Positions 18,910 to 53,113 of a stretch of 64,000 nt of DNA are shown piece after piece (positions within the stretch are counted from its first letter, which is position 1; each line of letters begins with the position of its first letter). Both the position numbers and the translations under genes were made by a program. The notes under the pieces are model-generated. The model saw only the letters and a program-made list of their open reading frames with translations. It was not told the DNA's origin and made no database searches. The stretch lies in NCBI GenBank assembly GCA_002245135.1, contig NGBS01000874.1, positions 1 through 64,000 on the forward strand, given 5' to 3'. This DNA comes from Proteromonas lacertae (lineage: Eukaryota).

Positions 18910-18974
18910 TATTAATAATACTTATATTACACATTATTATTATAATTAAATTGTTTTTTTATTTTCTATTAAGT
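18754..18974 (+). repeat. 221 bp direct repeat (second copy 20671..20891)
   Basis: Identical KYMKKLEK...EPVYVQ* coding end and 3' flank. Confidence 0.9.
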
Positions 18975-18978
18975 TATT

Positions 18979-19839
18979 ATGAAAAAACTAAATAAGAAAA
19001 TACTACTTGCTGTGTTTGCTCGGATGAGAGGCAAAGGCAAAAGGAAGAAGATACGGAGAGGTGAAGGATATAAAGGACATGACAAATATTATCAGAGTTT
19101 ATATAATAATTTTTATAGAGAAAATGCGAAAGATTTAGTGGATATAAGAAACAGTCGTTTAAATGAAATAAAAGATGAGATTACTAAGTTGAATTCTAAA
19201 GACACTCCTCCTAATGAAGGTGATATTCGTAAATTGAATGATGAGCAAAAATTTTTAGAGAGACAGAATGCAATCGATTCTATGTTATCCACATCATTAC
19301 ATGAAGGTAATGCAATGGCTATACCACTTGCTAATAGTTTAAGAGAGATTGATGATCAGCATTTGTTTGGTCCTAACATGTATGTGAATATGAATAGACC
19401 TAATTACAATGAAATGGCTCAAGCAAGTGCAAAGACTAGGATGCAGATGGGTGAGTATATGAGTAATCCAATTAACCAAATCAAGATGTCACAAATGCAA
19501 CAAATGGTATATATGCTATATGTTTTGATTTATATATAATAGTAGAAGTTGAATAAATTGATTACTCCTAAAGCAGAAACAGATATTAAAGTACAGCCGT
19601 CAACTGATATTAAAGATGATAAAGGCGATGATAATAATGAAAATGATGATGAATATACTATTGATGATGTTAAGAACTTAACAAAGGAACAAATAGAAAA
19701 TGCATTAAAAAGTGATGAATTTACAGAAGCTCAGAAAACTAAAATAAAAGAGTTGTGGGAAGAAGCTCAAAAACAAGATGACTTTGAATCTGACTTTGAA
19801 GAAGATGCATGGCAATCTGTAGAACGAAAGAAAAGTTAA
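18979..19839 (+). CDS. Two-exon hypothetical viral protein (intron 19507..19545)
   Basis: A 39 nt GTATAT...TAGTAG intron containing the stop codons joins in-frame ORFs 18979.. and 19549... Confidence 0.65.
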
Positions 19840-22259: not shown

Positions 22260-23377
22260 TTAATAAAGACCAGTTATTTGTGAATTAGCATAATCAGCAA
22301 TTTGTTTAACATAGGCATTATTATTATCTGGATTATTCCATCCTCTTTGGTTCATTGTAGGTACAGTTGGTTGATATTGTGTTGAAGATTGTGTATCTGT
22401 TTAACATATTCTTAGCTTCTGGTGGCAATTTATTCAATATTCCATATAATTCATTGTCTTTTTTTATATCATCTTCGCTATTAGTTGGTTGCTGAGAATA
22501 AACTGGGTTTTGGCCATCTAACTGAGGTGCAATACCCAAATATATTTACAGACATCCAAACGTTAAATCTGCAATAAAGAAGTTCAAAATTAGACCTTTT
22601 TTAAAAGGAGGGCCAATTACTATTCCTTATTTTCTAAAAAAGAAAGAACTGGAAGAAGAAGAAGAAGAAGAAGAAGTGATAGAAAAAGTAATAATGTGAC
22701 AATAAATTTGATAATCGCTTTATTGATAATAAGATAAGAGTACTTTAATATTATATTATATTATATTATATTATATTCTGTTTTAACCCTTTATATATTA
22801 GTTTAAAACATAATGGTAGTTGGTGGCAGAAGACATAGAAGACATAGAAGAGGGCGTAAAGGTGGATCATTAAAATCAATGTGGGGAAAATCAAAAAATT
22901 TGGGAAAGAAAGCATATGTATTAATTATTTCTTAATAAAATATAATTATTACATGAGTGATTCAGATTCAACAGATTATACTAGTGATGTAACATCATCT
23001 GAGGGTGAATTTAAGAACAATAATGAAAATGATGAAATTATGAAAAAAGTCTATAGAATGCTAACAAGTGATAATGAAAAAAAACATAAACATCACAACC
23101 ATGATTCATCAAATGATGTAATTATTAAAAGATTAGGATCTAGAAAGAGTGAAATAGATCAACTAAAAGAAGAGATAGGCATTATGAATGAAGATACTCA
23201 TGGAGATAATTCAATAAAAATTATAAATTAAACAAGTCAACAAAAGCTACTAGAAAGACAGAATATAATTGATCAACAACTAGCAAGTTCTCTTCATGTG
23301 GGTAATAGTATCTCTCATCCAATTGCAAAAGACTTAAGAGAGTCAAATGATCAAAAAATATTTGGATCACAATATAT
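22260..23377. pseudogene. Degenerate syntenic paralogue block from a second virus lineage
   Basis: Remnants homologous to 16887.., 17320.. (KGGPITIP, NRFIDNKIRVL), 17907.., 18295.. (MSDSDSTDY) and 18979.. (NDQKIFG), in the same order. Confidence 0.75.
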
Positions 23378-24073
23378 AGTATATAAATGGGACTATGGGA
23401 CATTGTCACAGAGTTCTAACGAGTGTTCTAGGAGTCCGTCCCCTTCTATATTCAGAGTTGAACTTTTGTACCAGGGTCCTATTTACGTAAGGTTCCTACG
23501 GGATTCCTCCCAACAGGGTCTACTTCTCAACGGGGTCTACTTTCCTACGGGAACTCCTCTAAGCTATTTCTATACCTATCTATGAGACGATCTCCTACGG
23601 GTACTCCTGGAAGCTATCTAGAAGTGTTGGTTACCTCGAGGTGATGGTAATGAAGAAGCAGTGATCTCTTTCGGAGTATGGGTAAGAACGTCTCAGAGGA
23701 AGCTTCCTTACCAAGGACGATGTTGCAGAGCAATATCGGACTTGGATAGGAAGGTTCCGTCGTAGACGTTCTTGTCCATGCCAGGAAGAAGAACTGCTTT
23801 CTTCATTACCAGGATCATTGAGAAGGTACTTTCATTTGATCATCATCCTGGATGTTGAATCTCTTGGAATTGTTGCTGCCCAACAAAGCAAGGTAAACTA
23901 TTTGCACCATGGTTGGGCAGCTCCGAAGGTGGTCACTGATTATAGTTATCCTCTTGCTTAGACTTCCTCTATCTATTACTATCCCTTAACTTCAGTCTAG
24001 GTAGGTATCGGCTTCTCCTGTAATGTTTTAGATCGATCCCAAGACAGAGCCTTATCGATGAAGATTGCAATCC

Positions 24074-26539
24074 TTAGTTATACAAAGTAGTGCAAGTGAA
24101 GATAAGCGGAAGGTCGAAGGAAGATGCTGCTATACTCTCTTGTAAGAAAGTAAGCTGATCTTTACCATTGAAAGCCATAAACCCTGAAGGTCTTGTTGAT
24201 TTACCAGTCTCGGGAATATGCACCCAATAAGAGGTTTTATTCTCGAGGTGAAATGCCCTTAAGAAGCAACATACCAGATCGTCACTCGCGTTGACAATAA
24301 CTATTCCATCAAATGAGATTGTTTCGTAACTTCGATCTATTGCAGTGATGGATAGCTGAACTCTGTTCGGATAAGCCGTAAAACAACCTTGGCAACTATT
24401 CACGTAGTGAGGTATTGCAATCTGAAGGTTCTGTACTTCAGCAATCACGGCATCCTGACTATTAAGGATGTAGTTCCACATTGAAGTCAAGGTCTCATTC
24501 ATCTGATTAGCTACCGTGGTAATCTCCGATGATCCATCTCCTTGAGATGCCAGGCTTTCTACTGATGTCTTTAACTCGGTCAACTTCTTCTGGACATCCT
24601 GAACATTGCTATCGACTGAGTTGATCTTACTTAATTGAGCTGCACTGGTAAAGTTGTTTACTTGAGTCACAGCCAGGTTGTTGAGGTTGTTGACTTTGCC
24701 TTGGACTTCAATGACTCTTGTCTGGCAGTCTCCTATCTTTGAATGTACTTCATTGACCTTGGCTAATTGAGCTGGTGAACAAAAGCTATTGACATTCCCG
24801 GAATTGAATCCATCGATCTTGGTTCTGATAGCAGCTGCATTGTTGATAGCTGTATCGATCAGTCCTTTACGGGTATTGTTAAAGAAGCCATCCAAGTTCC
24901 TTCGTAGGTTGTCTTCTTCAGTCCTTCTAGCCACGCCACAGGTTGCATTCACATCATTGATACTTAGAGAATCCACCTTGATCTTGATTGCATCGGTGTT
25001 GGCCTTAGTTGTATCAATGAAGTTACCTCGGCCTTCAGTACAGAACTGGTTAATACTCTCCTTGTTGAGGTCATGGACACGTTCATAACACTTATCTATC
25101 TTCTCCGATCGATCCGAAGTACAGAAGTGCTTCACTGCCGTGTTAGTCTCATCGATAGCAGCACTTCTCGGGATAGTACAAAACTCCTTGATCGCGTTGT
25201 CAGCATCGTCGAGCTCCTTAGTTCTCTTATCGGTAATGAATCCTTTGATCAGTTCCTCAATACTCTTGACAATGGTAAGTCTCTCCAAGGAGCAGTAGTT
25301 GTTAATGTCTTCGATGGCTATGCCGGTGATCAGCTCATGGACTTTATCAATCTTCTCCTTCTGTGAGCTACTACAATACTGGTTGATATTATCAATATCT
25401 ACCTTACTTACAATATCCTTGGTCTTGTCAATAGCGGTAGCTCTCTCCTCAGCGCAGAAGGTATTCGTCTTGTCAGCTTCTCCATTCAACCTGGCGATCT
25501 CTTCCTCCATAGCATTCATCTGGTTCTTGAAGTCCTTGTTGTAACCATTGGCAATCTCCATCTCTTGTAAGACCTCCTTGAACTTAATCATGTTATTGTT
25601 GATCACAGTATTGATTGCCTTGTACTCCTCGTAGTTGTTCTTCATCTTGATCAACTCCTCGGAGGCTACTTTGATCTGCTTCTCTAAGTCAGTGAGCTTC
25701 GTAAGGCTCTTATCATCCACCGTAGTGATGTACTTGATCATATCGTAGACGTTAACATCCCCGATGTTGAGACTCTCGCATAATGACTTCAACAAGGTAC
25801 TTAGACGATCCAGTTTCTCATCCTCCGATGCTTTCAATTGATCGATTGAAGTGTTGGTGGATTCAAGGGCATTGCTTACATCCTCCATGCTCTTATACAA
25901 CTCTGGTAATTGCTTCTCCGTGTATTGCTTAAGTTCATTGTTGCAAGTAGCGATATTGCTCAAGGTTGTAATAGTCGTATCTCCGAAGTCTTTAGGGATC
26001 TTGTTGTTAAGCAAAGTACTTAGGTTCTTGACTTCCTGGAGCTTCTGATCGATACCTTCAATCTTATCAGTCTCATCTTGCACTTCCTTTAAGGTCGATT
26101 GAATAGCTTTATGATCTGGTTGTAAGGTACCTTGAAGGTACTCATGGAGTTGATGATGATCAGTCTCTAGCTTAGCCAACTTCGTAGATGACTCCTCCGA
26201 GTGATCATCCAACTTTCTCTTGATAGCTGTTGTGGATGAGGTTACTTCTTCTTGTTGCTTCTGATTGATACTGACGGGTGTTCCTCGGAGGACTTCTTGG
26301 ATAGTGCTTACCAATGGAGGATTGATCTTATCATAGTCTATCACGGCCTTGAGTTCACCAGAACCCAAGGCCTTTTGAATCACTTCCTGGGAGTCTTGAA
26401 ACAACACGTCCTTATCGTACTTAACAACGACCTTCCCATCTATCTTTTGCTTCACATCGTAAGTAGTCTTGTCGATAGTATTAAGTAACCTTAACATCTC
26501 CTCATCGTTCTCCCGTAAGTTGTTCCCGGTGTTGAACAT
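24074..26539 (-). CDS. 821 aa long coiled-coil protein with (I/V)NxFC repeats and a globular C-terminus (fibre-like)
   Basis: Intact ORF with heptad-rich sequence and repeated INQYC/INNYC/IKEFC/VKHFC/INQFC/VNSFC. Confidence 0.75.
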   Translation of the reverse strand: MFNTGNNLRENDEEMLRLLNTIDKTTYDVKQKIDGKVVVKYDKDVLFQDSQEVIQKALGSGELKAVIDYDKINPPLVSTIQEVLRGTPVSINQKQQEEVTSSTTAIKRKLDDHSEESSTKLAKLETDHHQLHEYLQGTLQPDHKAIQSTLKEVQDETDKIEGIDQKLQEVKNLSTLLNNKIPKDFGDTTITTLSNIATCNNELKQYTEKQLPELYKSMEDVSNALESTNTSIDQLKASEDEKLDRLSTLLKSLCESLNIGDVNVYDMIKYITTVDDKSLTKLTDLEKQIKVASEELIKMKNNYEEYKAINTVINNNMIKFKEVLQEMEIANGYNKDFKNQMNAMEEEIARLNGEADKTNTFCAEERATAIDKTKDIVSKVDIDNINQYCSSSQKEKIDKVHELITGIAIEDINNYCSLERLTIVKSIEELIKGFITDKRTKELDDADNAIKEFCTIPRSAAIDETNTAVKHFCTSDRSEKIDKCYERVHDLNKESINQFCTEGRGNFIDTTKANTDAIKIKVDSLSINDVNATCGVARRTEEDNLRRNLDGFFNNTRKGLIDTAINNAAAIRTKIDGFNSGNVNSFCSPAQLAKVNEVHSKIGDCQTRVIEVQGKVNNLNNLAVTQVNNFTSAAQLSKINSVDSNVQDVQKKLTELKTSVESLASQGDGSSEITTVANQMNETLTSMWNYILNSQDAVIAEVQNLQIAIPHYVNSCQGCFTAYPNRVQLSITAIDRSYETISFDGIVIVNASDDLVCCFLRAFHLENKTSYWVHIPETGKSTRPSGFMAFNGKDQLTFLQESIAASSFDLPLIFTCTTLYN

Positions 26540-27756
26540 TGCCTAGGTAATGATTCCAGATTAGAACTTTACTTATAGATCCAGGAGCTACTTTACTTAG
26601 ATGGTTTCTCAGGTATCTCTTATATCATAACATGTCCTGGCCTTCAACAGCTTTACCTACCTCCCGAGAAGTACCTTGCTTACTCTATCCACACGATGAA
26701 CTTCAACTCCTTACGATTACTAGCTGATGGATGTAGATGACTTTATCGGTCTTTGTAATGAGTTGCGTGATCTCTATGCTGTAAACTTCATAGTCTCGAT
26801 CATCATCTACCATCTTAACTTACAATGCTTCTATTCCGATAAGACTTATACGATGGTCAGAAGCCTCCCTTTGAAGTTCAACTACTCTCCGTAGACTTCA
26901 CTTGCACCTTTGACTTCCAAGGATCTACTAATCGTCTCTCTATTCTAGATGCTCCTTTACCTTCTTGGACTTCTCGGACGTGACAGACATTGCCTATGAA
27001 GTACTTTGTCTTCACTCTTGGTTCTAGCAGTCTATGATCACTGCTATAGTAAGTACCTTGAGACTGACTGCTGAAGTTAGAGTTGATCTCATCCTTAACA
27101 TCTCTTGAAGAACTACTTGTGATCTTTATCGATACCTATCTCTTGAACTGATGGTAACCCTTCAAGTGACAATTCCTTCTAGTTCTAGTTCATCGAAGTT
27201 GTTGATCCTCAGTAATGTACTAGCCTTCAGTCTGATCACTACTAGTCTCGATATTGTTATTGAAGTCAGTGTCTTTACCTATCTACTGATAATCACCTTA
27301 CGATCGATAGCTTATAGACTCTTGGACATCTATGCCAGTGTTGCTACTTGAGGAGTATACGATATCTCTGGTCTACTTACTTACTTACTAGTAATGATTC
27401 CTAGCATCACAAGTAAGGACTACTAAGGTAAAGGATTATCGATCACACTTCCTATAGTCTGCAATTGTAACTCATTATGTACCTACAACTACTTCATGAT
27501 CTTCAGAGTCATTGATCCAAGGATGTTATCTCGGGGTTGTTGATGTCCTTACTATCATTGACTTATTCGAGACTCCTTTAATTGATTACTTACCATGTCC
27601 TTGAGTTGCTCATCTCCGTAAGGTTCCTTGAATTGATTATTTCTATTGTCCTCGGTTATACCCAAGGTAACATTTTACTAAGTACCAACAATGTTAATCA
27701 CGTTCCTTATCAGGAGATGGAGATGTGTTTATTACTACTACTACTACTTGTGGAAG

Positions 27757-28545
27757 TTACGATGACTTTGCCGAGTAAGGAGTTGCTTCAGAAGCTAGCT
27801 TTAGATGCTTCGCTGGAGGATCACTTGAAGCACCTAGCGATGGTACTGAGGGTGTTGTTATCGGTCTCTTCTTCGGAGGACTACTAAGCTGTTTTTGTCT
27901 CCTCATTGATTCTATCCTGAGTAGGAGATGATCTTCATATTGTCTTAAGCGATGATACAGACTCAAGAGACAGCACATCGGAAGTGACTTTACCTTTAGA
28001 TCTACGTGAAAGTTGATGTGTCCATCTTTGATAGATAAAACTATCTTGGCCTGGCAAGACTTCTCTTTGAGGTGAACAGCATCACATGGAAATGTAATAA
28101 TCTTATCGAACATCCCATCATGGTCGATTAGATCATTGTTGTCCTTGATTGTCTTAAGAATCTCATGTATACTGTGTTGCATAAGCTGATTAATTATATC
28201 CCTTGTTTTATCACTGGAGTTGATGGAGATTCCTGGTTGTTGATTCTTAGTAGGTTTCCCAGATCTACATCTTGGACAACATCGATAGTAGTCTCCATTG
28301 GGCTTTAACATCATCGATGAAGCGAAGTGCATATGGCATCTACTGCAGGACATAGTCTTGGCTATGAGTTCACCGTTCTCTTCCAAGGCTTTACGTTCCT
28401 CATGGCATCGGGCTATTGTCTTCTGCTTTGCCTTTGGTAAGAGAGCTCTACAAGAACTACAACAGCTGTATGCTCTTCCATCAGCTTCAGATTGGAACTC
28501 CTTCTTACATCGACTACATTTGACGATGGATTGCATGGTTACCAA
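27757..28545 (-). CDS. Tandem CxxC...CxxC zinc-finger protein
   Basis: CSRC...CSSC and CSRC...LKPNG...CPRC. A homologous remnant with LKPNGGY lies at about 36230-36310. Confidence 0.65.
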   Translation of the reverse strand: MVTMQSIVKCSRCKKEFQSEADGRAYSCCSSCRALLPKAKQKTIARCHEERKALEENGELIAKTMSCSRCHMHFASSMMLKPNGDYYRCCPRCRSGKPTKNQQPGISINSSDKTRDIINQLMQHSIHEILKTIKDNNDLIDHDGMFDKIITFPCDAVHLKEKSCQAKIVLSIKDGHINFHVDLKVKSLPMCCLLSLYHRLRQYEDHLLLRIESMRRQKQLSSPPKKRPITTPSVPSLGASSDPPAKHLKLASEATPYSAKSS

Positions 28546-30042
28546 TTAAGTATAAAAATAACTAGAAATATTTTAATGCCTTGAGTGACTGTAATAATTG
28601 ACTGGTTACTACATATTGATCTCATGGTTATTAGGTACTTGTTTATTAGCTTTACTTCTATGAGTTCTTATTCATATCTAGGAATGATGATTAGTAGATA
28701 GTCTGTAACTGGTTACTACATATTGATCACTTAGATAAGCTATTGGAATTTAGCAACTAAGTCCAGGATCTATTTTCTATGTCCCTATTTTTAAACCTTC
28801 CTTACGATGTCCTTAAGTCCGGTCAGTTCAATTTTTCTTGGCCTTATCAGAGTTGTGAATGCACCTCCAACTCCTAGGCTTCTTGTAGTAGGGGTCACTC
28901 AATGCTTCCTAAGCTCCTGCTGTTGATCTCATTCCAGTGTTAGGGTATCTGGTACTGTACTTTATAGTGAACTGTTGATTACAGATTCATCTCTATTCAA
29001 TTTTTTCTTTGAAGTTTGGATCTCTAATGTGGTTGATGATGGTTTTGATGGATACTAGAAGGCCATGTAGGCTGTGGTATGGATTTTATGAAGTATCAGT
29101 GGTGGGGTTCGAACCTGGAGGGGATGGGATGTTGGTACCTGGTCTGCCCACTAGGGCATCTTGACCTTGCTTATGTATTGCTGATCCTAGTATATGTATT
29201 GTTCAGCTACAGTATTTAGTGAATAGCTTCAGAATGATTCCTATTCTATCTCCATTGGACAGATGATGGGGAATTGACCTTAAGAAATTGCTCATTAGCT
29301 TACCTCCAGTAACATCTCTAACAAGTGCTCAGGTAAGTTCCTGCTTATCCTAAGCTTCCTAATCACGGTATCCACGTTTCTACTATTGCTTAGATGATGA
29401 TGCTGTCCTCGGGAATGAACTTTACCTTCAGGAATAAATAAACTAAACTGGTATGTAAGGAGCTTCCTAGTAGATGAATTATAAGGCTAATGGAAGATAC
29501 CTACAGAACCCTCCCGAGATTGTTTATCACGATCTTCAAGGCCTTTGATAAATTCAGAACTAGCTGGAGCATCTTGGATTCAAGTCTTAGAAAGACAATG
29601 AAACTTACCTAGGCAATGATCCTGTTCCTTGGCTTTGTAATGCAGTCTCTTGATGGAAGTTCCATGACTATGTCAGGAGGAACATCCCTTCCTTGCTAGG
29701 ATAGATGATAATTGAACTTACCTAGAAGAGTTATAAAGCCATTGTAACTTACATCTAGAAAGCTCCCGAGATTGCTTATCATTATCTTCAAGGCCCATCC
29801 AGAAGTACCATCAAGGCACCTTCCCAGATACGTCCAGCCGTGCATGACTGCGTCAGGGAATCTCCCATCGTGGGAGATTCCTTTCCTTGCCAACACAGCT
29901 GTTCTTCTCGGGAAGGTCTTGGATGAACTTATCTAGGAGAGTTTTAAGGATGATAAAACATACCTTCAGAAGCCTTCCGAGATTGCTAATCATTATCTTC
30001 AAGGGCCCTTGAGAAATCCACAACTAGCTAGAACCTCCCGTA

Positions 30043-30094
30043 GTTACCATTTGGTAACTTGTTACCAATTGGTAACTAGTTAACAATTGTAAAC
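30043..30094. repeat. Three 16 bp palindromes at an 18 bp period
   Basis: GTTACCATTTGGTAAC, GTTACCAATTGGTAAC, GTTAACAATTGTAAAC; conserved at about 36496..36545. Confidence 0.8.
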
Positions 30095-30225
30095 TCCCGG
30101 TTCCACGATTGGTTTCCACGGTTCAATTAAAAGCCCTTACAAGATCACCAGCGTAGCAAGGAGAGTCAAGAGCATGATTAGAATCATCACCTCGAGGTAA
30201 CCAACACTTCTAGATAGCTTCCAGG

Positions 30226-31295
30226 CTGAGTTCGGCGGGGACAGGGACAAAAAGGACATGTCCGGGACATGTCCGGGACAAGAGTATGATAAAGGACAGT
30301 AATTTATCCCTTTTGTAAACATTTGATATTACCTTTTTGTAATATAAATAAATTATGTGATTTTTTTGTTTATTAAAACATTTATAAGTAAGAATAAAGA
30401 TAATTAATAATAACATTGATAATCTGGACTACCTTCTTCACTTTGCTCATCATCTTCTTCACTTATATCTTCCACATTAGTAATTTCTCTATTTTCATCT
30501 TCATCAATTCCTACATTTTGTTCTTATTCTCTCTTATTTCTCTCAACTAATTCATACTTTAATCTCATAATGTTATTAATAGTATCTAAGTTTAATCTAT
30601 TTCTCCTGTATGAATGTATTACTCTTTCGATGGAGAAAATTCTCTCAATAAAAGAGCTTGAACATGGTATTGTTGATATAATGTCATAGATTTTCTTTAA
30701 ATTTCTAAAGTATATCTCATATGTTGTAAAGCATATATCGATTGAAATACTTTCGCGAAAAATGGAAGAAGGTAAATAATATATGATATTAAAAATGCAA
30801 GAACTCGAGTTAATCAAACATTTTTTCTTTTTTTCTACTTTTTATTTGTATTTAATCCAGGCATATTTTATAGTACAAATTAGTGCAATGATAAGCATGT
30901 ATCATGTGGAGTTCTGTTATGTGATGAGTGTTTGTAAATGGGGATATTCTTCATTAAACTATACAGAGTTATCTAAGTGGTATAAGTGGGTTAAATATTA
31001 TTCATAGATATAGCAAATATGGCTTAAATGGATTTTCAAAAGATATTATTTAGGATATACAAAAATGACTTGAGTATAGTATGTAATACTTAATATTAAG
31101 CTTATTTAATGCTATTGCAGAATATTTTTATTGAAAAAACAGAAACTTAAACTCAAAAATATAGGACAAAAAAGGACGTGTTAAACTACACGTCCCGGGA
31201 CAAAGAGGACATGTGTAATCAACGAGAAGTTTTAGTGTATGAAAAGGACAAGGGACGGGACAAAACACAAAAGGACGTCCCGTTGCCGAACTCAG
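30226..31295 (-). mobile_element. Non-autonomous hAT transposon inserted in the right TIR
   Basis: CTGAGTTCGGC...GCCGAACTCAG termini; TSD CTTCCAGG (30218-30225 and 31296-31303). Confidence 0.95.
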
Positions 31296-31473
31296 CTTCC
31301 AGGAGTACCCGTAGGAGATCATCTCATAGATAAGTATAGGTAGGTATAGGAAGGTATAGGTAAGTATTGGTAGGTATAGATAGATATAGAAATAGCTTAG
31401 AGGAGTTCCCGTAGGGAAGTAGACCCCGTTGAGAAGTAGACCCTGTTGGGAGGAATCCCGTAGGAACCTTACG

Positions 31474-31676
31474 TAAATGGGACTCTGGGACATTGTCACA
31501 GAGTTCTAACGAGTGTTCTAGGAGTCCGTCCCCTTCTATATTCAGAGTTGACCTTTACGGGAGCTTCATCGATGCAATCGATGAAGGCCCCGTAAAAGTC
31601 AACTCTGAATCTAGAAAGGGACGGACTCCTAGAACACTCGTTAGAACTCTGTGACAATGTCCCAGAGTCCCATTTA
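31474..31676. repeat. 203 bp terminal fold-back palindrome
   Basis: Arms of about 100 bp with few mismatches around CTTCATCGAT-GCA-ATCGATGAAG; duplicated at 49218..49420. Confidence 0.95.
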
Positions 31677-31688
31677 TATACTATATAT

Positions 31689-32520
31689 CTTACTATCTCT
31701 AAAAAACAAATATTAATGTAATTATAATAATAAATCTCTATTTCTGGATATTAATAATTTGTCTTCAATAAGTCTCTTACTTTCTCAGTTTCTGAAAATA
31801 AATAAGCATTATAAAACTCTCTTAGAGGTATAATATATCCTAATTTGAAGCAAAACCTTCTAAATTCTGGTGAGTCTAATATTGTGGTACTGACTGCATT
31901 GAAGGTTATTAATTTAAATAGATCTTTGTTGACAGAATCTGAATTGACTTTGGCTTTTACCATATGTAATAATCTGAATATTTTATTTTAATCACGTTTT
32001 CCAAAACATTTTGAAGTAGTTAAAATGTTACTTCTCTAACATACAACAATTGAATAAAATCACAACTCTTTTGATGCGATAGGGGGTAATGTGATATCCC
32101 TATAGTTTCATATATTATAAAGTCTTATAAATATTGAGTAATTATACATTTAAATGATCTAAATCTTAAAAAATAAAGATTAACTTTGTCAAACCATCAA
32201 GCTTGATGTTTTTTTCTTTTATTTTTTTTATTCTATAATTAATTTAATATTATGTTAATAATATGTTATTGTGAGTCATCATTGAGAAATAGATCAAAAT
32301 AATAGTAATATAAAATGTGCATCGACCGACTGTCAAATTTGATATTTGAAAGATGATGTATAAAACATTAATTTTGTATATATGGTTAGATTATATGCTT
32401 CTTAACTCATGTTCAATAGGAGGTCAACTAATAGTTAGTATAAGTAAGGTAAAGGTCAAGCTAAAGATATAGGTTTTGACCTATAGGTAAACCTATATTT
32501 TTTGACCGAAAAATACAACA
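31689..32520 (-). mobile_element. End fragment of another TGTTG-terminated (Ginger-like) element containing an hAT-like transposase fragment (31751..31963)
   Basis: Terminus ...CCGAAAAATACAACA at 32520, where the duplication with 48375 also stops. AAGCTTGAT subterminal motif shared with the Ginger 5' regions. The ORF has ILDSPEFRRFC..LGY.IP. Confidence 0.5.
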
Positions 32521-32561
32521 CTTGTTATTATCATATATACTGTCATATATAATTGTAAAAC

Positions 32562-33938
32562 ATGATAACTGTTAATCAAATATATCCATTCATATTAACT
32601 ATTTTATTTCTAAGTAAATACTATTCTGAGTCTAATGTATTATCTTACCATTCATACAAATTCTATGAAAAATGCACTACTACAAGATATTTATATAATA
32701 ATACAATTTGTTTATTAAAACATTTGCAGAATTATAGTAATGGAAAAGATGTATGGAAAGATATACTTTTCAATGATAATAATAATGCTTGTTCATTTTT
32801 TAGAGATATGAATTTATTTAAACATAATCAAATGTATTTTTATCATAGATTATATAGTAGACTTCATGATAGTAATTCAATATCTATTGAAGGACATTTT
32901 CCAGATAAATCATATTTACGATTATTACCTAAAAATAAAAAAGATTACAAAAATGTAATTACTCATACATATGAAGTTCAGAGGTATATTTATAGTTATC
33001 AGCATCCAATAAACTGTTTTAATAAAAAGTTCCTAATTATAAAGGGGTTTAAATCTGGGCATGGATCTGAAATACATGTTATGACATCTTATTTATCTTT
33101 AGCAATGTCGACAAACAGAATAGCCATTTTTGATCCATATTATACAAACGACAAAGCAAATGGCACATTTTGTAAAAATGAAAAGAACTGGTTATGTTTT
33201 CTTGAACAACTAACAAACTGTTCATTGACTTTTTTTCATTTTTATACAGCTATAGAATATAGAAATAATAGTCAAAAAGAAAAGTATTTATTTATAAAAG
33301 ATTCGCAACAGTTTAGAACATTAATACCTAAAGATATTAAAAAAATTATTCAGCCATCATCGATGTATAAGCACAAATATCTTCACTATTGGCGAATTCA
33401 GGCAACTACATACATATTTAGATTAAACAGAAGAACAGAAATAAAAACAAATCATATGATAAAAGAATCAATTGGAAATAAATTGCTTTATAGTTGTTTT
33501 AATATTTGGGTTAGACATGGAGATAAATACAGAGAAATGACTCTTTTAAAATCAGAAGATTACATTCCCTCCTATAATATTTTCAAACGTGTTATTGGAT
33601 ATAACATTCCCATATACTTGTCTACTGATGATCCAAATGTTACTCTTTATTTTGATAAGAAAAAGAAATACATTAATTCATATTATTTAAAGTTTAAACG
33701 AAAGAATGATCATTGTATTGAAAATTTAAGAAGAGGTACAGAAATGACATTATATTTTATTGCAGATATAAAAGCTGCATTGTATTGTGATGGTTTTAGC
33801 GGTACTAGAAAAAGTAATGTTGTAAGATTGATTGATGAATTAAGAACTACAGTGGGTTTATCAGCAAATTCTTTATACTTTGAAAATGGAGATATTCATT
33901 TTTCTGATACAGCTTATGAATATTATGAATTTTGGTGA
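32562..33938 (+). CDS. GT23 (FUT8/NodZ-like) alpha-1,6-fucosyltransferase-like protein, probable host gene
   Basis: N-terminal hydrophobic anchor; GHGSEIH, VRHGDK, IYLSTDDP and SNVVRLIDELR motifs; intact 458 aa ORF. Confidence 0.8.
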   Translation: MITVNQIYPFILTILFLSKYYSESNVLSYHSYKFYEKCTTTRYLYNNTICLLKHLQNYSNGKDVWKDILFNDNNNACSFFRDMNLFKHNQMYFYHRLYSRLHDSNSISIEGHFPDKSYLRLLPKNKKDYKNVITHTYEVQRYIYSYQHPINCFNKKFLIIKGFKSGHGSEIHVMTSYLSLAMSTNRIAIFDPYYTNDKANGTFCKNEKNWLCFLEQLTNCSLTFFHFYTAIEYRNNSQKEKYLFIKDSQQFRTLIPKDIKKIIQPSSMYKHKYLHYWRIQATTYIFRLNRRTEIKTNHMIKESIGNKLLYSCFNIWVRHGDKYREMTLLKSEDYIPSYNIFKRVIGYNIPIYLSTDDPNVTLYFDKKKKYINSYYLKFKRKNDHCIENLRRGTEMTLYFIADIKAALYCDGFSGTRKSNVVRLIDELRTTVGLSANSLYFENGDIHFSDTAYEYYEFW

Positions 33939-34644
33939 ATAAGAATTTATTTCATTAGAAAATATACTGCTGATAGTGTAAAGTATGATATCTACTAAAT
34001 ATGTTGTGAAAGATAAGTTATATTATTAACATACGTTTGTATGTTTTTATATCATAGATTGAATCAAATATATGTAAAGCCGTAAGAATATGTTACCGAT
34101 AAGAATAAGCGATTTAAGCGAGAAAGTAGTTTTTGATCATGTGAATGAAAAGTATGTTTAATTAATCTGATGTAGTATGATGATCAAAGTTGTTTGTGAT
34201 GATGATTAACATCCTATTGTAGATTAAGAAATAGTTTTTTTATCGTATTAAGTATTCAACTATTTCTATTACTCTACTTCAAATACTATTAATGTTAATT
34301 TGTCATATACAGTTTTAAATTATATTTTTCACTTTATTTCAATTTTCATTTATTCATTTTGATTTTGATAAAAATATATTCTTATTTGTTATTTTCACTC
34401 AGATCATATTCATATTATCATATTATCATCATACACAGCTTTTAAACTGTTCAACAACAACTTATATACAATTTTAGATGAATCTACTACAATAAACCAT
34501 TAAACATTATATTCACTTATCTTTCATTTTATATTATTTTAATATTATTTTTCACTCACTTTTACAAATATACCAAATATTACCATTTCTTAGAATTTTC
34601 TGATTTTCAAACTATTGAATAATGAAAAGAGTATTAAGATATAT

Positions 34645-36895
34645 AGTATAAACATGGGACTTTGGCCTAATGTCATAGAGTCCTAACAATGGTTCTAGAA
34701 GCCATGACTGAAAGAATCTTTGATTATGATACCAACTACTACCTCCAGTTGAATGATGCCAGGGTGATGTCCTTCTTCATTGACTCCAACAACGCCGAGA
34801 TGTTTACCAAGAGCTTACGATATAATGTGGACATGGCAACTCAACTCTCCGAGCAGGTACTCTCAATGTAGCTCTCTGGAAGAGAGGCAACAAGAAGCTC
34901 TTGGCCTTTAAGCAGAACATCTACAGTAACGTCAGTAAAGTCTTCATGTTCTTGCTAGTGATCAAGGATTCAGTTATCTATCCAGGCAAGGAAGTGTCTA
35001 GCGATGAAACTACAACGGAGGCAACTTTATTCAACCTGTAAATATCTTTCCTCATTACAAGATCAAGGACATCTCCATAAATGCTTATCAGCCTCCACAA
35101 CCTCAGTTCCCACAAGGGATGACTTCTCAAGGAGTTATTCCTACTCCTACTCAAGTAGTTGCACCTCAAGGAGTTCAACCAAAACAACAACCTAAAAAGC
35201 CTTCTCAAGGACCTCTTCAATGACTTCAACATCGACTTAATTCCTAGTTGTTGTTCATCAAGGGCTTTCTCATTCATATGTTTTCGCCTTAAGGGCTTTC
35301 TTCTTCATAGCACTGTTAAGTTCCTTGTCGAATTCTTCATCATCGTCTAAGTAGTTGTCTAAGGAGTCATTTTCATTACCTAAGTCATCCTTGGGAGCTT
35401 AATCTTCTGACTTCTCTTCTCCATATTCATACTTGCTATCATTCACATGCTTATTCCAGGTAATAGGAGTAGGATGGATGGAGTAGGCTAATTCATTGAA
35501 GACTGTATGGAGTATTCAGTCTTGAGTGAGTCCATTACCTTCTTGATATCCTCGGAGGTAGGTTTCTTTGATTCATCATCATCAGCAGCAGCAGCAGTAG
35601 TAAGTAGTTGTCTTAGTAAGGCCATTGTATTCTCATCACCATCATCGGAGCTTCCTCTGGCTCCTTGTTTCATCATCATCATCATTATTGTTGAAGGGTC
35701 AAGATCCTCGGAGGAGTCACTTACTTCACGGTCAGCTTCAATGCTCTTCATGATTGTAGGAACTACAAGGAATCCAGGAGTTGATATCGCATCTACGATT
35801 GCCAGGCTTTACTATTTGATACTCTCTAACTACATTATAAGGTGGTGGAACATCATTAAGATCTTCTGCTTCTTGTGTTAGTTTAATAAATTGTTTTTCA
35901 CTTAAGTAATAATTGTTTCTCATAAAACCTTTGAAGTTCAAGGAATTATCGGACTAACCATTTTCTATGAATTCTATCCGAATCAGCAACTGTCTTAATA
36001 TTTTTCCATGTCCTTAATCTTCATGATCCAACCTTCCGTGAATGCTACGCCTAGTCGACTTCACCTTTCATGTTCCTATTGGAATGGATTCTAAGTACTT
36101 CTTACATTGGATATTCTTCGGCTCTAAGCATTGATTATTACCTTGTGCTGTGTTAGTCGATCAAAGCTCTCATGGTTGCTAGAGTCTTGAGATAGACTGA
36201 TAACATATTCCTCCGATTAAGTCGTACTACACACTGAGGAGTATCCTCCATTGGGTTTAAGGAAGTTCTCTAGCTCCTTCTTCTTGAGGCGCTTCATGCA
36301 AATAGACAACTGATGAGAAAATATTAGCTGGATCTATTGCTTACGACGACCTTAACTTCCAGCCGTAAATTGCTTTCCCTTAATAGGTCCTCTACCTATC
36401 GAGTATTCTACGTTCTCGGGAGCCTTCTGCGAATGCTATCTTTCTTCGGAAAAGACACTCCTATTAAGCTTTTAACTAGCCGAAGCCTCCTGGATTTACC
36501 AATTGGTAACTTGTTAACAATTGGTAACAAGTTAACAATTGTAAAGTCCCTGTCCCCAGTTGGTTTCCAAGGTTCAATTAAAAGCCCTTACAAGGTCACC
36601 AGCGTTGCAAGGAGAGTCCCTGTTGTAGGAAATAGTCTCATAGGTAGGTATAGGTAATTAACACTTCTAGATATCTTCCAGGAGTACCCGTAGAAGATTG
36701 TCCTGTAAGAGGAGTCCTGTAAATGGGACTATGGTACAATTGTCAAAGTTCTAACGAGTGTTCTAGGTATCGTAGATGTTCTTGTCCATGATTGCTGCAT
36801 TTGAGGCATAATCAGTAAGGCTTTTATTAGAATCGTTGAAACTCACCGTAGAACCGGGAATTTACAATTCTTAACTTGTTACCAAATGGTAGCTT
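34645..36895. mobile_element. Diverged, deleted relative of the 23378..31682 element
   Basis: ATATAT|AGTATAAACATGGGACT terminus, subterminal palindrome triplet, TIR-like blocks at 36655-36770 and similar GC content. Right end approximate. Confidence 0.7.
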
Positions 36896-36976
36896 CTTTT
36901 AGCTATCTTCTATATATGCAAATTACATTTATAGTAATAAATAGCAAAAGTTTAAATAATTTGCTTAATAGTGTGA

Positions 36977-37957
36977 TTATACCCATGCATGAGCTCTAAT
37001 TCCTTTTTTTCTTAGGTGAAGAAATTTCATTGTTGCGCAATACAATGAACAATTTCTATCTACCTTTTTTCCCCACCATTTCATCATATATGGCTCATAA
37101 AAATGATATTCAAAATAAAATTCATTTGGCATTATATTGTTATATTTTATTAAATGATTAAATATAGGAATTTCAACAGCTGGAGTATCAACATCAAGTT
37201 TAAAAATAATGTATGAATGATTTTGATATTTCTTTATCAAATTAAGTGGATTATCATTTGATGTAATATTTGTTGTAATTGGTTTATTATAGTAATTATA
37301 TTTTCTGAGAATATCATGTGGTATTTCTTTTAGTGCTTTGGTAATATTTATTTTAGCAGCCTCCCACAAATACCATTTTCTAAATTCTGTTGAAGGATAT
37401 TTTTTATAGAAATTGTAAAAATAACTCTGACTCGATCCTCCATATCCTTCATTAAATGTAGAAGCACCAGCATCAATATATACTATAGGTTTATACAAAG
37501 CAAATAAATAGGAAGGTAAAAGATAATCTTTTGAAAGTATATTACCCTTTTTACCAGTACAACACTGAGAAAATGTGTTTCTAAGAATGCCAAATAAAGG
37601 TTCTATATACTCTTTTACCAACCTGCCATATTTATTTTTGAATAAAAAGTATGACATATCCTCTCCAATGCATTTACGATATTTTAATTCTTTACATTTA
37701 AATATACTATTGTTTAATAATATTAATCTGTTAGTAAAGGGATATATGAATTTGCAATATTGTTTATAGTAATTATATTTATGATGTTTAAGTATATTAA
37801 TCCATTCCGTTTCAATCTTAGATGATTTATAAGCTATATATTTTAAATAATCATTTTCGTTTTCAGTTATAAAGTTATATAAAAATATCACTGATAATAA
37901 CATAATAATATTAATTATAACTAATGAAAAACGATACTTTCTCTTATACATAAACAT
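36977..37957 (-). CDS. Type II membrane FkbM-like SAM methyltransferase, probable host gene
   Basis: N-terminal TM helix; VYIDAGAS, IFKLDVD and EFYFEYH motifs. Confidence 0.7.
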   Translation of the reverse strand: MFMYKRKYRFSLVIINIIMLLSVIFLYNFITENENDYLKYIAYKSSKIETEWINILKHHKYNYYKQYCKFIYPFTNRLILLNNSIFKCKELKYRKCIGEDMSYFLFKNKYGRLVKEYIEPLFGILRNTFSQCCTGKKGNILSKDYLLPSYLFALYKPIVYIDAGASTFNEGYGGSSQSYFYNFYKKYPSTEFRKWYLWEAAKINITKALKEIPHDILRKYNYYNKPITTNITSNDNPLNLIKKYQNHSYIIFKLDVDTPAVEIPIFNHLIKYNNIMPNEFYFEYHFYEPYMMKWWGKKVDRNCSLYCATMKFLHLRKKGIRAHAWV

Positions 37958-41000: not shown

Positions 41001-41640
41001 TGTTGTGCGCCGTTTGTCATAGTTGGCCGTTTGTCTACCAGACACTTTTAAAACAAACTAAATGTATATTCTTACTTGTCTTGATGAAAAATCGTTACTT
41101 TTATTACTTACTTTGTTATATGACCTATATCTGCAGTATACTTTTTTGATAATATAAATAGTTTGAATATTTGCGCCATTTGTTTTCTAGAAATTTTTGA
41201 AGCAAACTAAATACATATTTAGCTAATATAGACTAAAATACATTAGTTGAAATGATTAGAACAACTTAATGTTGATCATAAGACATATAAAAAGAAAAAA
41301 GAAAATATAGAATCAAGCCTCACTCAAGCCTATTTTTTACATTTCTTTTTTTATATAGAAAGATGTAATAATTATTATATTCTAATCATTTTAGCTAATG
41401 TATTTTAGTCTATATTTGCTTAAAATGCATATAGTTTGCTTCAAAAATTTCTAGAAAACAAATGGCGCAAATATTCAAACTATTTATATTATCAAAAAAG
41501 TATACTGCAGAGGTAGGTCATATAACAAAGTAAGTAATAAAAGTAACGATTTTTCATCAAGACAAGTAAGAATATACATTTAGTTTGTTTTAAAAGTGTC
41601 TGGTAGACAAACGGCCAACTATGACAAACGGATCACAACA
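41001..41640. mobile_element. Ginger-family MITE with TIRs of about 260 bp
   Basis: TGTTGTGCGCCGTTTGTC...CACAACA, 5 bp TSD ATCAT. Termini nearly match element 2. Confidence 0.92.
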
Positions 41641-41759: not shown

Positions 41760-42726
41760 TCTTTATTCTCTTTCATTAACTCTTGAATATCCATCAGAAA
41801 TAATGATCGTGGCTTGCAATGAGTTCTTCTACATATACCAGTATTAATTCTCTCAATAATTCTGTCTATATAATCTGTCCAATACACTTCTTTTTCTTTT
41901 GTTTCATTAAAACTATTCTTTTCTTTCTATACTTTCTTTTGATCTATTTTTGGCTTTGGATACATAAATTTTCTCATTGTAATTCTCAACCTTACCAATT
42001 GTCTGTGGACGATAAGGAGCGCTGTGAATTTCTTTAATATGATACATCTTAAATAATTGTTTAATAACATCATTGACAAACTCCAATCCATTATCCATTT
42101 GCATAATCTTTGGAGGTCCAAATATTCTAATATAATTTGCCACATTTCTTGTAGTTTCCTTTTCTGACTTTGTTTTCTGTGCATAAACCATGGTAAAATT
42201 ACTGTAATGATCAATGATGGTGAGGATATAATGGTATAAGTCCTCTTTTTTCATATTTTTGAAGTCTTTGTTGAATTGATTCATGTTAATTAAATCCAAA
42301 AGTATTCTTTCTCGAGGCAGATTAGAAATAATTGGCTTAACTGGTTGTCCATTTACCACCTTTTTCGTCTCTTGACAACCTATACAAGTGTCAGTATAAG
42401 CCCGCAACATGTCTCTGACTATACCATAGTAATCCTTTTGAAGCAAGGGTAACATATACCTATCATTAGCATGAGCATAATTAAGATGAACAGGTTAAAT
42501 TTGATCGAACGACTCCTCAATTGTAACTACCTTCTTGTTTTTGAAGTACAAAATACCATCCTTTATGGAGTACTTCTTTCTTTTATAGTTACCAATGTTG
42601 CTTAAGTAAAGATCTACTTTCTCCTTTGTGAATGTTCTTGTGCTTTTCTTCGCTATGTTCATAGCATTAATTCTTTCTAAGTAAACGATTTTATAATTAT
42701 AGTCCAAAGTTTTTCTAAGTCTTAGC
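41760..42726 (-). pseudogene. rve DDE integrase/transposase (SCAND3/KRBA2-Ginger2 type), exon 2
   Basis: H-H-CxxC zinc knuckle (VHLNYAH...CIGC), PIISNLPRERILLDLINM, QMDNGLEF, HSAPYRPQTIGKVE. One in-frame stop at 42495 and a 3' frameshift. Confidence 0.9.
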
Positions 42727-45700
42727 CTATAAAAAAGATAGTATAAATGTTATGTGAGTAATGAATATAGATATATAGATAATTACTGTTGTTTATAATA
42801 CTCTTACCCCCAAAAAACAAAAGAAAGAATGTTTATTTATATATTTTAAATCTTAAATAATTAAATCTAAGATTTAAGATATAAGTGTAACAATTGACTC
42901 CTATTATTATCGAATCTAAGATAATAATTCATATATAATTCTACTAATAATTCTTTCCCTTGTTTCTTCGTTGTATTGTCATTACTTTTTAATTAACCAG
43001 CCATCATTAATAGAAATTTTAAAACTGTTCAACCAAAATCATAATGACATTATCAACTACATCAGTTGAATAGTAATCAATTCCATATATTCATAAACAT
43101 ATATAAATGTACCAGTAAAAATTATACCAAGCAAACTCTGTTTCATTTAATGTAACTTCTTTTATTGTATATATTATCTCAGTATAAACTAATAATCTCT
43201 TTTCATTTAATTTATATGTTTGAATTTGAATTTATATAATTCATCTATGGAAATTTCTTCATTCGGAATTCCGCGATAATTGGAGATAATCAATGAGCCA
43301 TTACATTACCATAATTTAATCTATCTTTCCAATATATTTCAAAACATTAATCTCAAAGCATCAGCTTGTTTCTAAATTGCCATTACTATTGTTCTTCAAA
43401 TTACTTCATTGATTTTTCACTTTTCTTCTTATCTACATATTCATTGGTCAAGTTGATCTTTCTTCTACTACGCTACTTGTTCTGTTAATATTATAATATT
43501 ATAATCTATTAGTTGCATTAAGATTTCTTCTTCTTCTATATTGTATATCATATTTAATACAATATAACTCAATTGGATCTTTGCTTATATTCATTATTAC
43601 TAATGGTTATTCAACTGGTTCTAAATGAGATTGTATTGGATCAAATTGAATAACCATTAGAATAAGTATATTTATATCACCAATTTGTGAAGGTGTAAAT
43701 TCTATTTCTGCATTAAACCTTTCACATCATATATTCTGATCTGAGAAGCACCTTATCTTTCAGCTTTTTCTTTCTTAAAACTCCAATCAACAGTTACAGG
43801 ACATTCATTGTATAATGTCACAAACATCACTTGGTATTATTGATAATCGAAGAATACATACATCAGCTCTTAATATTATACAATAAGTTGGTACTCCTTG
43901 TACTTTGATTGGAATTGCTAAATCATATCTTCCATAAGGTAAATCAGATTTCGCTGTAAAACTAGATGTAAATGTCACTGTTGAACTTTTTTGTAATCTT
44001 TTCACTTCATCTGGAGTTAATGTATATCTACACTCTTATAAAGTTCTTCTTTCTATTCCGAAATTCACTGGTAAATTACCTATATTCGTTATTGTAAATG
44101 TCTTTGTCTTACTATCAGTTCGAACTACATTACCAAAATCTACTACATAATCAGCTAATGGAAACTCACCTAAATGTAAATTAGATATTTTCTTATTCGC
44201 CATTTTTGTTGTTTTGACTGTTTCATCTAATAATAAATCGATATAATATAATTTTAAAGCTTCAGATTCTCAATCAACTGTGATTTGTAATGATGCTGTA
44301 TTATTTCGTGAAGGTAATTTATTTATATTTGTCATGATTTTAGGTGGAGATGGTTATTTATTATCATTTTGTTGTGAATTCTTACTTCTCTCAAATACTG
44401 ATTTTTGACTATCTACTCTTGCAGATGATAGTTTCTTATTTTCATATTTTCTTTTCCTTCTTCTGTTATTTAAGTTGCTTATTCTCCTTCTAGTTTTGAT
44501 TCTGGTGGTAATTCTTTTACTGTTGCTTTACCAAGTGTTGGTGAATTGACTGGAATTCCATCTACAGTTATTGGCTTTTTAGCTTCAACTGGTTTTTCTT
44601 TTTCTTCTTCTGCTAATGGTTGTTCTGGTTTTTGTGTTTCTCCTCTTTCTGTTGGTTGTTTGATTGGTGATGGTAATGCTGGGTATGATAATGGATATTC
44701 AGTATTGGATGATACGATCAATCTATCAGCTTCTTCTAAGTAATGTTCCCAACTATTTGGTATTACCAATTCAGCATCATTCACTTTAATTTCTCTATTA
44801 CTTAATCTAAAACACCAACTAAACCAGTTCGAGAAGCACTATCAGTTGACATTTTAAATGGAAAATCTATTATATACATGAGGTATTTCTGAATATCTCA
44901 ATTCAATTTTTTCAGATTCAACTAGTTGTAAAATACATAGAATTTGGGTTATATCATATACTTCATTGATTGGAGATATTTGATTTTAGGTTTCATCTAT
45001 TTATAATTCCCAATGATAAGGACAAGGAATTGTTCCACGAGTTTCAATTGATAATAATAAAGATCTTTCAGTACTATTTAATATACAACCAAAATCCAAA
45101 TCATTCTAAGATAACCATAAAATGGGAAAGGCTACATCAGCTAAACATGGAATTGAATCTTTCTGAGGATAATCTTTATCTTATATTCAAAATACCATTT
45201 ATTTTAAAGGATATTTTATCATCTTTATAATTTGGATCAAATGCCACTGTCACATTCATTGATTCATTTGATTCTAAATGGAATTCATTCATACTTAATA
45301 ATAATGGAGCTGCTATACTTATTATCACATCTAAACTCAACGTTGATATATTCTTAAATACATCTGTCTTACTTTAAACTTCACCTGAAACTATAGCTTC
45401 ATATACATATTAAAATATGATTTATAAATTACACTTTGACTTCTGTTTTTATTGCTTCGTTATTTCTTATTTCTCTATCTATTAATTTATAAGAAAAATT
45501 GATTAATGCTTCATTTGTAAGTGATACTTCATATCGATGTGTTGAATACATAAATATATCACCAATATCTAATATATCATAACTAAAATAAGATTTTGGA
45601 CCAACACCTGAACCTGTTATTAACAATGGAAATCGATCTAATCTATTTTCTAATTCACGATTATTTCAAATCTCACTATCTTACTAGATTTCACCTTCAT

Positions 45701-48372: not shown

Positions 48373-49914
48373 AGTGTTGTATTTTTCGGTCAAAAAATAT
48401 AGGTTTACCTATAGGTCAAAACCTATATCTTTAGCTTGACCTTTACCTTACTTATACTAACTATTAGTTGACCTCCTATTGAACATGAGTTAAGAAGCAT
48501 ATAATCTAACCATATATACAAAATTAATGTTTTATACATCATCTTTCAAATATCAAATTTGACAGTCGGTCGATGCACATTTTATATTACTATTATTTTG
48601 ATCTATTTCTCAATGATGACTCACAATAACATATTATTAACATAATATTAAATTAATTATAGAATAAAAAAAATAAAAGAAAAAAACATCAAGCTTGATG
48701 GTTTGACAAAGTTAATCTTTATTTTTTAAGATTTAGATCATTTAAATGTATAATTACTCAATATTTATAAGACTTTATAATATATGAAACTATAGGGATA
48801 TCACATTACCCCTATCGCATCAAAAGAGTTGTGATTTTATTCAATTGTTGTATGTTAGAGAAGTAACATTTTAACTACTTCAAAATGTTTTGGAAAACGT
48901 GATTAAAATAAAATATTCAGATTATTACATATGGTAAAAGCCAAAGTCAATTCAGATTCTGTCAACAAAGATCTATTTAAATTAATAACCTTCAATGCAG
49001 TCAGTACCACAATATTAGACTCACCAGAATTTAGAAGGTTTTGCTTCAAATTAGGATATATTATACCTCTAAGAGAGTTTTATAATGCTTATTTATTTTC
49101 AGAAACTGAGAAAGTAAGAGACTTATTGAAGACAAATTATTAATATCCAGAAATAGAGATTTATTATTATAATTACATTAATATTTGTTTTTTAGAGATA
49201 GTAAGATATATAGTATATAAATGGGACTCTGGGACATTGTCACAGAGTTCTAACGAGTGTTCTAGGAGTCCGTCCCTTTCTAGATTCAGAGTTGACTTTT
49301 ACGGGGCCTTCATCGATTGCATCGATGAAGCTCCCGTAAAGGTCAACTCTGAATATAGAAGGGGACGGACTCCTAGAACACTCGTTAGAACTCTGTGACA
49401 ATGTCCCAGAGTCCCATTTACGTAAGGTTCCTACGGGATTCCTCCCAACAGGGTCTACTTCTCAACGGGGTCTACTTCCCTACGGGAACTCCTCTAAGCT
49501 ATTTCTATATCTATCTATACCTACCAATACCTTCCTATACCTACCAATACCTTCCTATACCTACCTATACCTATCTATGAGACGATCTCCTACGGGTACT
49601 CCTGGAAGCTGAGTTCGGCAACGGGACGTCCTTTTGTGTTTTGTCCCGTCCCTTGTCCTTTTCATACACTAAAACTTCTCGTTGATTACACATGTCCTCT
49701 TTGTCCCGGGACGTGTAGTTTAACACGTCCTTTTTTGTCCTATATTTTTGAGTTTAAGTTTCTGTTTTTTCAATAAAAATATTCTGCAATAGCATTAAAT
49801 AAGCTTAATATTAAGTATTACATACTATACTCAAGTCATTTTTGTATATCCTAAATAATATCTTTTGAAAATCCATTTAAGCCATATTTGCTATATCTAT
49901 GAATAATATTTAAC
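48373..49914 (+). repeat. Inverted duplicate of about 30987..32522 (TGTTG end, hairpin TIR, hAT end)
   Basis: Identical 70 aa ORF, hairpin, and hAT junction CCTGGAAG|CTGAG. Confidence 0.92.
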
Positions 49915-52237: not shown

Positions 52238-52307
52238 GTAATAATTCTTTATTATTGACTTCTATTTTTATTTTTTGATTTCTCACTACATAATATATAC
52301 ACACACA

Positions 52308-53069: not shown

Positions 53070-53113
53070 TGTTTTTATTAATTTTGTTATTTTATTGTTT
53101 ATTAATTCAAAAA

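Follow-up and report, generated by a model that had tools for sequence, protein, structure and literature searches.

A long terminal palindrome in a probable Polinton-like element of Proteromonas lacertae, with a possible inversion between its two ends

Palindromic ends in described systems

Palindromes that lie within TIRs, beside TSDs, have been described for virophage subtypes 1, 2, 5, and 6 and PLV subtype 4 of Halocafeteria seosinensis, where hairpin priming is proposed and accidental annealing is offered as the alternative (bioRxiv 10.64898/2026.07.28.741278). The words "flip," "inversion," "isomer," and "orientation" are absent from the available main text of that preprint. The element analyzed here (termed E1) shares several features with these virophages and PLVs: the palindrome lies in the TIR beside the putative target site (6 nt from an ATATAT hexamer), partial elements keep their TIRs and TSDs (putative in E1), and DNA transposons invade nested virus-like elements; hairpin priming is in their case, too, a proposal. 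E1 differs from them in the length of its palindrome (203 nt, compared with 52 nt in a figure of the preprint), in a conserved 6-nt tip beyond the palindrome, and in having no capsid, integrase, or replication gene in the copy at hand.

Mavericks/Polintons, as described in the available text of PMC8097293, resemble E1 in having intronless ORFs, AG...CT ends, TIRs a few hundred bp long, and a flanking repeat of 6 bp, whereas E1 has no match to pPolB, integrase, ATPase, protease, or capsid proteins and carries the same hexamer at every end. The tip of E1 is AGTATA rather than the (AGT)2 or (AG)3 of vertebrate Mavericks, only the first AG(T) being in agreement (PMC8097293), and with such a tip protein priming of the classical Maverick kind would be unsupported for this element. 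Duplications of six bases are typical of rve integrases (PMC12220804), and ATATAT conforms to RTATAY, the preference of the related Ginger2 integrases (PMC2836005).

Flip and flop forms are known from AAV, in which the ITR primes synthesis and is nicked and recopied by Rep (PMC11575299). Like the AAV/parvovirus ITR, E1 has an imperfect terminal palindrome of comparable length, and its two ends appear as opposite isomers; unlike it, the palindrome stops short of the end, no Rep was found, and the element is integrated with a TIR and hexamer flanks (PMC11575299). The flip-and-flop hairpin telomeres of poxviruses similarly occur as mismatched, inverted-complementary forms, but these are covalently closed ends of a free genome, while in E1 a distinct tip and host flank lie beyond the palindrome (PMC8956199). 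None of the literature matches listed, whose scope leaves aside subscription journals and bioRxiv supplements, describes flip-flop isomers for Polintons, PLVs, or virophages, and those flip-flop texts that name Polinton refer, in the parts available, to poxvirus or asfarvirus ends.

The element, its insertion site, and its class

E1 occupies positions 23378 to 31682 (8.3 kb) of the window, the 64,000-nt stretch of contig NGBS01000874.1 that was analyzed, and is a TIR element with AG...CT ends and ATATAT at each side. Its features, together with those of a diverged relative (E2) and of a duplicated right end, are as follows:

23372..23377, unstranded: ATATAT at the left end of E1, interrupting a gene paralogous to 18973-19539
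23378..23459, + strand: left tip (23378-23383) and left outer arm (23384-23459), with the right inner-arm bases at positions 60 and 66
23460..23485, - strand: remnant of the left second arm, left after the loss of about 100 nt including the loop
23486..23646, + strand: left TIR, inner part, paired in inverted orientation with 30185-30225 plus 31296-31473
24074..26539, - strand: intact 821-aa ORF with a long coiled-coil-like stretch (by eye)
27757..28536, - strand: intact 259-aa ORF with two CxxC-CxxC repeats, for which no homologue was found
30226..31295, unstranded: internally deleted hAT transposon in the right TIR, with an 8-bp duplication CTTCCAGG at 30218-30225 and 31296-31303
31296..31473, + strand: right TIR, inner part, including a short minisatellite
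31474..31676, unstranded: right terminal palindrome (inner arm 31474-31573, loop 31574-31576, outer arm 31577-31676)
31677..31682, - strand: six-base non-palindromic tip, AGTATA read inward, identical at the left ends of E1 and E2
31683..31688, unstranded: ATATAT at the right end of E1, likely the target-site sequence
34645..36911, unstranded: E2, a diverged relative of E1, with ATATAT at 34639-34644 and 36912-36917
49206..49608, + strand: duplicate of the right end, same isomer, part of the inverted segmental duplication 31326-32528 / 48367-49568

The TIRs of E1 (23378-23646 in comparison with 30185-30225 plus 31296-31682) are within the several-hundred-bp range of Maverick/Polinton/PLV elements, the left one measuring about 270 bp, and they diverge at 3/240 positions (1.25%, counted outside the deletion junction and the diagnostic sites, with 8 positions counted twice). 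The GC content of the body is 41%, compared with 31% and 24% in the flanking regions. ATATAT adjoins all four independent ends of E1 and E2, the hexamer being identical in every case; ATATATAG/CTATATAT occurs 23 times in the 64 kb, including five occurrences at the ends of the E1/E2 family. The gene that is cut by the left end has no continuation after the right end or elsewhere in the window. Because this gene is not resumed, the two ends probably derive from different insertions or from a later rearrangement, and for the same reason ATATAT may belong to the element end instead of being a duplication.

Several other repeats occur in and around E1. A full-length hAT copy is present at 49609-51974 (with a 464-codon open stretch), and internally deleted copies of the same family are found at 4633-5649 and 30226-31295; the full-length copy occupies the same TIR position as the deleted copy in E1, with the 8-bp duplication at one side only. 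The idea, formed by eye, of a hAT gene in the right flank of E1 was unsupported (BLASTP E 0.9, with no family passing). Directly inside the left TIR is a second imperfect hairpin (23642-23817; arms 75% alike, -52.7 kcal/mol), about 260 nt beyond the stop of the 821-aa ORF; this hairpin may serve as a transcript-end signal. Just inside the right TIRs of E1 and E2 lie arrays of palindromic units of 18 bp (30037-30100, 36489-36549, and 36854-36894), which are candidate protein-binding sites, and the non-coding right part of E1 contains three diverged direct repeats of about 92 nt each (29461-30015). Rfam gave no matches across 23000-37200.

Protein homology gave no assignment for either ORF of E1. 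For the 821-aa ORF, no homologue was found among 1.84 billion representatives with the whole protein, none with residues 330-821, and none in viral contigs; its C-terminus was modelled as beta-rich at low confidence (pLDDT 44.7) and this model returned no fold matches at E<=0.001, and the protein has no similarity to the two fibre-like ORFs of the window. For the 259-aa ORF, none of 176 candidates passed in a search confined to its own length class. The atlas leads reached 0.76 at best for the larger and 0.83 at best for the smaller protein. Pfam searches of the two ORFs and of 18 read-through frames of E1 and E2 gave no Rep/HUH, RepHel, or polymerase match; there was no match to a reverse transcriptase, recombinase, or transposase in the E1 body, and none to capsid, packaging ATPase, protease, integrase, pPolB, or helicase inside E1 or E2. 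The arm patterns of E1 have no match in viral contigs or metagenome contigs, and its right end has none in phage records; a looser tip pattern matched nine metagenome sequences and one viral sequence, which we attribute to chance (21-32% identity beyond the pattern and no BLAST hit).

Core Polinton genes are present elsewhere in the window, in lower-GC sequence, and their absence from E1 would equally be expected of a deleted Polinton derivative. E1 is likely a defective element of the Polinton/PLV type, a membership that is inferred from its ends and neighbours, its proteins being without homologues in the searches run. It would work like a non-autonomous Polinton-like virus belonging to an otherwise unrecorded family.

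Pfam matches in the window include pPolB, A32-like ATPase, rve integrase, hAT, and CFAP65-like domains. These matches point to a host with an AT-rich genome, probably flagellated, in which Polinton-like relics abound. Positions 1-23371 and 52000-58000 hold the remains of two or more AT-rich elements of Polinton-like type (pPolB fragments and ATPases), along with ORFs that we take, from their motifs, to be capsid-like and protease-like; the capsid-like ORF had no Pfam match and retrieved no viral contigs, while for the ATPase at 52245 there are 19 relatives, with identities of up to 91%. A separate TIR family ending in TGTTGTGCGCCG is found at 41001-41640, 38499, 46407-46509, 55669, and 62724-62836; a short element of this family, with 275-bp arms, adjoins an rve integrase ORF (41913-42494) and looks Ginger2/TDD-like. 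A hairpin at 56298-56383 has 37-bp arms and is built from the AAACGGCG motif common to the TGTTGT-ended family. The window also holds near-identical inverted duplications (1-3824/9324-13156, 44446-45239/47095-47888, and 31326-32528/48367-49568), which are either transposon-driven rearrangements or an assembly effect, and duplicated, broken copies of a CFAP65/HYDIN-like host gene (44039-45382 and 58494-61702).

The terminal palindrome and the two ends compared

The right end of E1 is a real, unusually long terminal palindrome. It forms a 203-nt hairpin with a 100-bp stem and a 3-nt loop, and its DNA fold has a free energy of -110.5 kcal/mol, compared with -22.8 +/- 3.2 for shuffled sequences (0/200 folding as well). 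In a scan of the whole window, this hairpin and its copy have a palindrome score of 85, the next best scoring 22, and 10 shuffles of E1 reach scores of 7-10. The fold and the coordinates agree with a preliminary description of this DNA, which had placed a stem of about 100 bp 6 nt from the element end; ATATAT follows beyond those 6 nt. Five pairs of the stem are mismatched (stem positions 60, 66, 80, 89, and 90), and all of them fall in the tip-side 41 bp, as opposed to none in the basal 59 bp (p about 0.01 if mismatches were uniformly distributed, with the boundary set post hoc). The two diagnostic sites at which the arms had been said to differ are stem positions 60 and 66, and both are present.

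Comparison of the two ends gives a left outer arm that is identical to the right inner arm at 75/76 positions (differing at position 12 alone), and to the right outer arm at 73/76 (differing at positions 12, 60, and 66). The left outer arm accordingly bears the inner-arm variants at positions 60 and 66, as had been claimed, and the further statement that only two sites back a flip also holds: two sites are scorable at two independent ends, stem position 80 falling within the left deletion junction, where it cannot be scored. The left second arm had been described as deleted; about 100 nt including the loop have indeed been lost, but a 26-nt stretch of this arm survives. Relative to both right arms, this remnant has 4/26 differences and a 7-nt gap, an excess over the TIR rate of 3/240 (binomial p 0.0003), and therefore the left end did not arise by simple deletion from a flipped right hairpin. 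The inner arm of E2 shares two of these four differences, for which the simulated p is about 0.005, or 0.10 when the comparison is restricted to the 19 bases whose alignment is secure. As it now stands, the deleted left end folds no better than shuffled sequence (37/200 as good).

A simple Poisson model was used to compare old mismatches plus an opposite isomer with the absence of a flip. At the measured divergence of 1.25% the probability is 0.19 with a flip and 0.045 without, a crude likelihood ratio of 4, which becomes 26 at 0.5% divergence and 0.7 at 3%. A single inversion between the ends of E1 is likely; with regard to the flip/flop isomers that had been suggested as possible, inversion accounts slightly better for the two sites, short of being established.

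Two further copies bear on the history of the palindrome. The third hairpin copy (49212-49420) has 0/209 differences from E1 and shares 846 bp of flank with it (2/845 differences), so that it is a duplicate and adds no independent isomer. E2 has an outer-type arm at 34651-34701 (79% like that of E1) behind its AGTATA left tip, and an inner arm at 36720-36767 (88%) that continues into inner TIR sequence, as it does in E1. Given its conservation in E2, the arm sequence probably functions as an end signal (an origin or a protein-binding site). The right end of E2 is not the inverse of its left end: the region 36720-36911 is left-end-like, with the inner arm followed by 36770-36790, which equals 23760-23780 at 20/21 positions, then by an inverted copy (36815-36891) of 36515-36591, and it ends in CT ahead of ATATAT. 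On the strength of this arrangement, the right end of E2 appears to resemble a decayed junction of two ends.

Template switching, hairpin priming, and their implications

The explanation that we favor, to which we assign about an even chance, is that the palindrome belongs to a defective and likely Polinton/PLV-type element, and that the difference between left and right ends was produced by one polymerase template switch rather than by a built-in flip-flop. A retroviral-type integrase acting in trans would insert the linear element at ATATAT via its AGTATA tip, and in the ancestral end the inner arm (I) would have departed somewhat from the outer arm (O). During inward synthesis in the lineage that led to the right end, the polymerase would have quit its template between stem positions of about 34 and 59, continued on the opposite strand across the loop and all of O, and rejoined at the base of the stem. 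The product would have an outer arm made of basal O and tip-side I, an inverted loop, and an inner arm that is a complete O, which matches the observed pattern. The left end would retain O on the outside and would later have shed the loop and the greater part of I, a loss to which long palindromes are prone. A single intermolecular switch would account at once for the inverted core, the mismatch-free basal 59 bp, and the divergence of the left remnant. Because the basal 59 bp are perfect and the left remnant is divergent, with two differences matching E2, the alignments suggest that the inner arm of the family was once unlike the outer arm and that the right inner arm has since been replaced by a complete outer-arm copy.

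There is precedent for such an event in yeast, where intermolecular template switching accounts for arm homogenization and spacer inversion together, as in the REG2 case (PMC8604942). As at the right end of E1, one event both perfects an arm and inverts the center, although the arms (10-16 bp) and spacers (2-5 bp) of the yeast cases in the available text are far smaller than the E1 palindrome (PMC8604942). Against the template-switch explanation stand the small number of independent E1 ends (two) and the weaker sharing with E2 on securely aligned bases; error-prone repair would also cluster changes, and such repair at the left deletion is an alternative origin for the differences in the remnant.

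If there had been no inversion, the left outer and right inner arms would both be ancestral and the right outer arm would have gained two substitutions before the segmental duplication. Two changes suffice for this reading and the third site, position 80, is unreadable, but its probability under the Poisson model is the lower of the two, the five mismatches in the tip-side 41 bp are far over the roughly 1% divergence between ends, and all five are older than the duplication. Because their crowding exceeds that divergence, the tip-side mismatches look old, and we consider the no-inversion reading unlikely. It is very improbable that the palindrome is itself a fold-back read or an assembly artefact: while the several near-identical inverted duplications of the window would be in keeping with one, the arms differ at five pairs, the sequence resumes beyond the palindrome with a unique tip and flank, and the retention of the inner-arm junction in E2 at 88% identity makes the inner arm an old family feature, which argues against a fold-back. 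Moreover, the duplicate differs from E1 in the minisatellite and hAT part (18/505) and for this reason is not a copied piece of contig. The lack of protein homology to PLVs leaves room for membership in another palindrome-ended class, i.e., a Helitron/Helentron derivative, a fold-back DNA transposon, or a tyrosine-recombinase element, with the hairpin as its end signal. Helitrons have asymmetric ends and are not known to carry a long TIR or a TSD, and DIRS-like retroelements encode a reverse transcriptase and a tyrosine recombinase and have a complementary region internal to the right ITR. E1, unlike a Helitron, is symmetric, with TIRs of about 270 bp, AG...CT termini, and a 6-bp flank on either side, and with no RepHel match in the ORFs and frames searched it does not fit a Helitron/Helentron; a DIRS-like identity was also set aside, there being no Pfam match to a reverse transcriptase or tyrosine recombinase and the inner arm lying within the TIR. 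Taken with the lack of a reverse transcriptase, recombinase, or transposase match in the body, these features make another class improbable.

Regular flip-flop by hairpin priming would require that the ends of the excised element fold, that a trimmed 3' end primes synthesis, and that resolution inverts the palindrome in each round, the 6-nt tip being regained from the opposite TIR or supplied for the purpose of integration. Consistent with this, the two ends appear as opposite isomers, as in AAV, where the orientations are independent (PMC11575299), and the likelihood ratio is 4-26 in favor of inversion over none. Hairpin priming has been proposed for palindrome-ended virophages/PLVs without pPolB (bioRxiv 10.64898/2026.07.28.741278), the tip lacks the vertebrate Maverick repeat to which protein priming has been linked (PMC8097293), and the inner arm of E2, followed by left-end-like sequence, is loosely like a concatemer junction. 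The tip is nevertheless the main difficulty: AGTATA is not mirrored by the inner sequence (CGTAAG), its six terminal bases being unpaired and outside the stem, so that the 3' end of E1 in its present form could not self-prime. Nor would terminal resolution restore the tip because, reasoning from the AAV model, it copies the inner side outward. No Rep/HUH or polymerase was matched in the ORFs and frames searched, a flip of the whole hairpin leaves unexplained the difference of the left remnant from both right arms, and both isomers were not seen at one end type (two independent ends, two sites). Rolling-hairpin replication of the parvoviral kind, which had been proposed from the flip/flop, fails on the external tip and on the absence of a Rep/HUH match, with supply in trans being possible; nor does a flip in itself imply it, since template switching also inverts the cores of palindromes (PMC8604942). 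E1 does not qualify as a parvovirus-type rolling-hairpin replicon, lacking both a self-priming 3' end and a Rep match, and we regard regular flip-flop, through a hairpin-primed mode with added trimming and repair, as a minor possibility. A more specific form of this idea, in which E1 represents a new integrating Polinton-like family with unrecognisable proteins that combines priming by the 100-bp hairpin, with a flip in each round, and a separate 6-base integrase tip targeting ATATAT, is doubtful.

For PLVs and virophages without a protein-primed polymerase, hairpin priming has already been proposed as the way in which the ends are copied (bioRxiv 10.64898/2026.07.28.741278). When a palindrome is imperfect and its mismatches can be scored, it carries its own marker of replication mode, and this window supplies such a marker along with two independent ends, too few to settle that mode. 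Should the template-switch explanation be true, E1 would record a commonplace copying slip at a palindrome, in a decaying element whose family is otherwise unrecorded. If instead the hairpin-priming family is real, the ends of E1 would provide the first case of flip and flop isomers in a Polinton-like virus, and the model would be testable by isomer counts in genomes: across many insertions, a ratio of about 1:1 with independent ends would indicate hairpin transfer, and one dominant form would indicate rare template switches.
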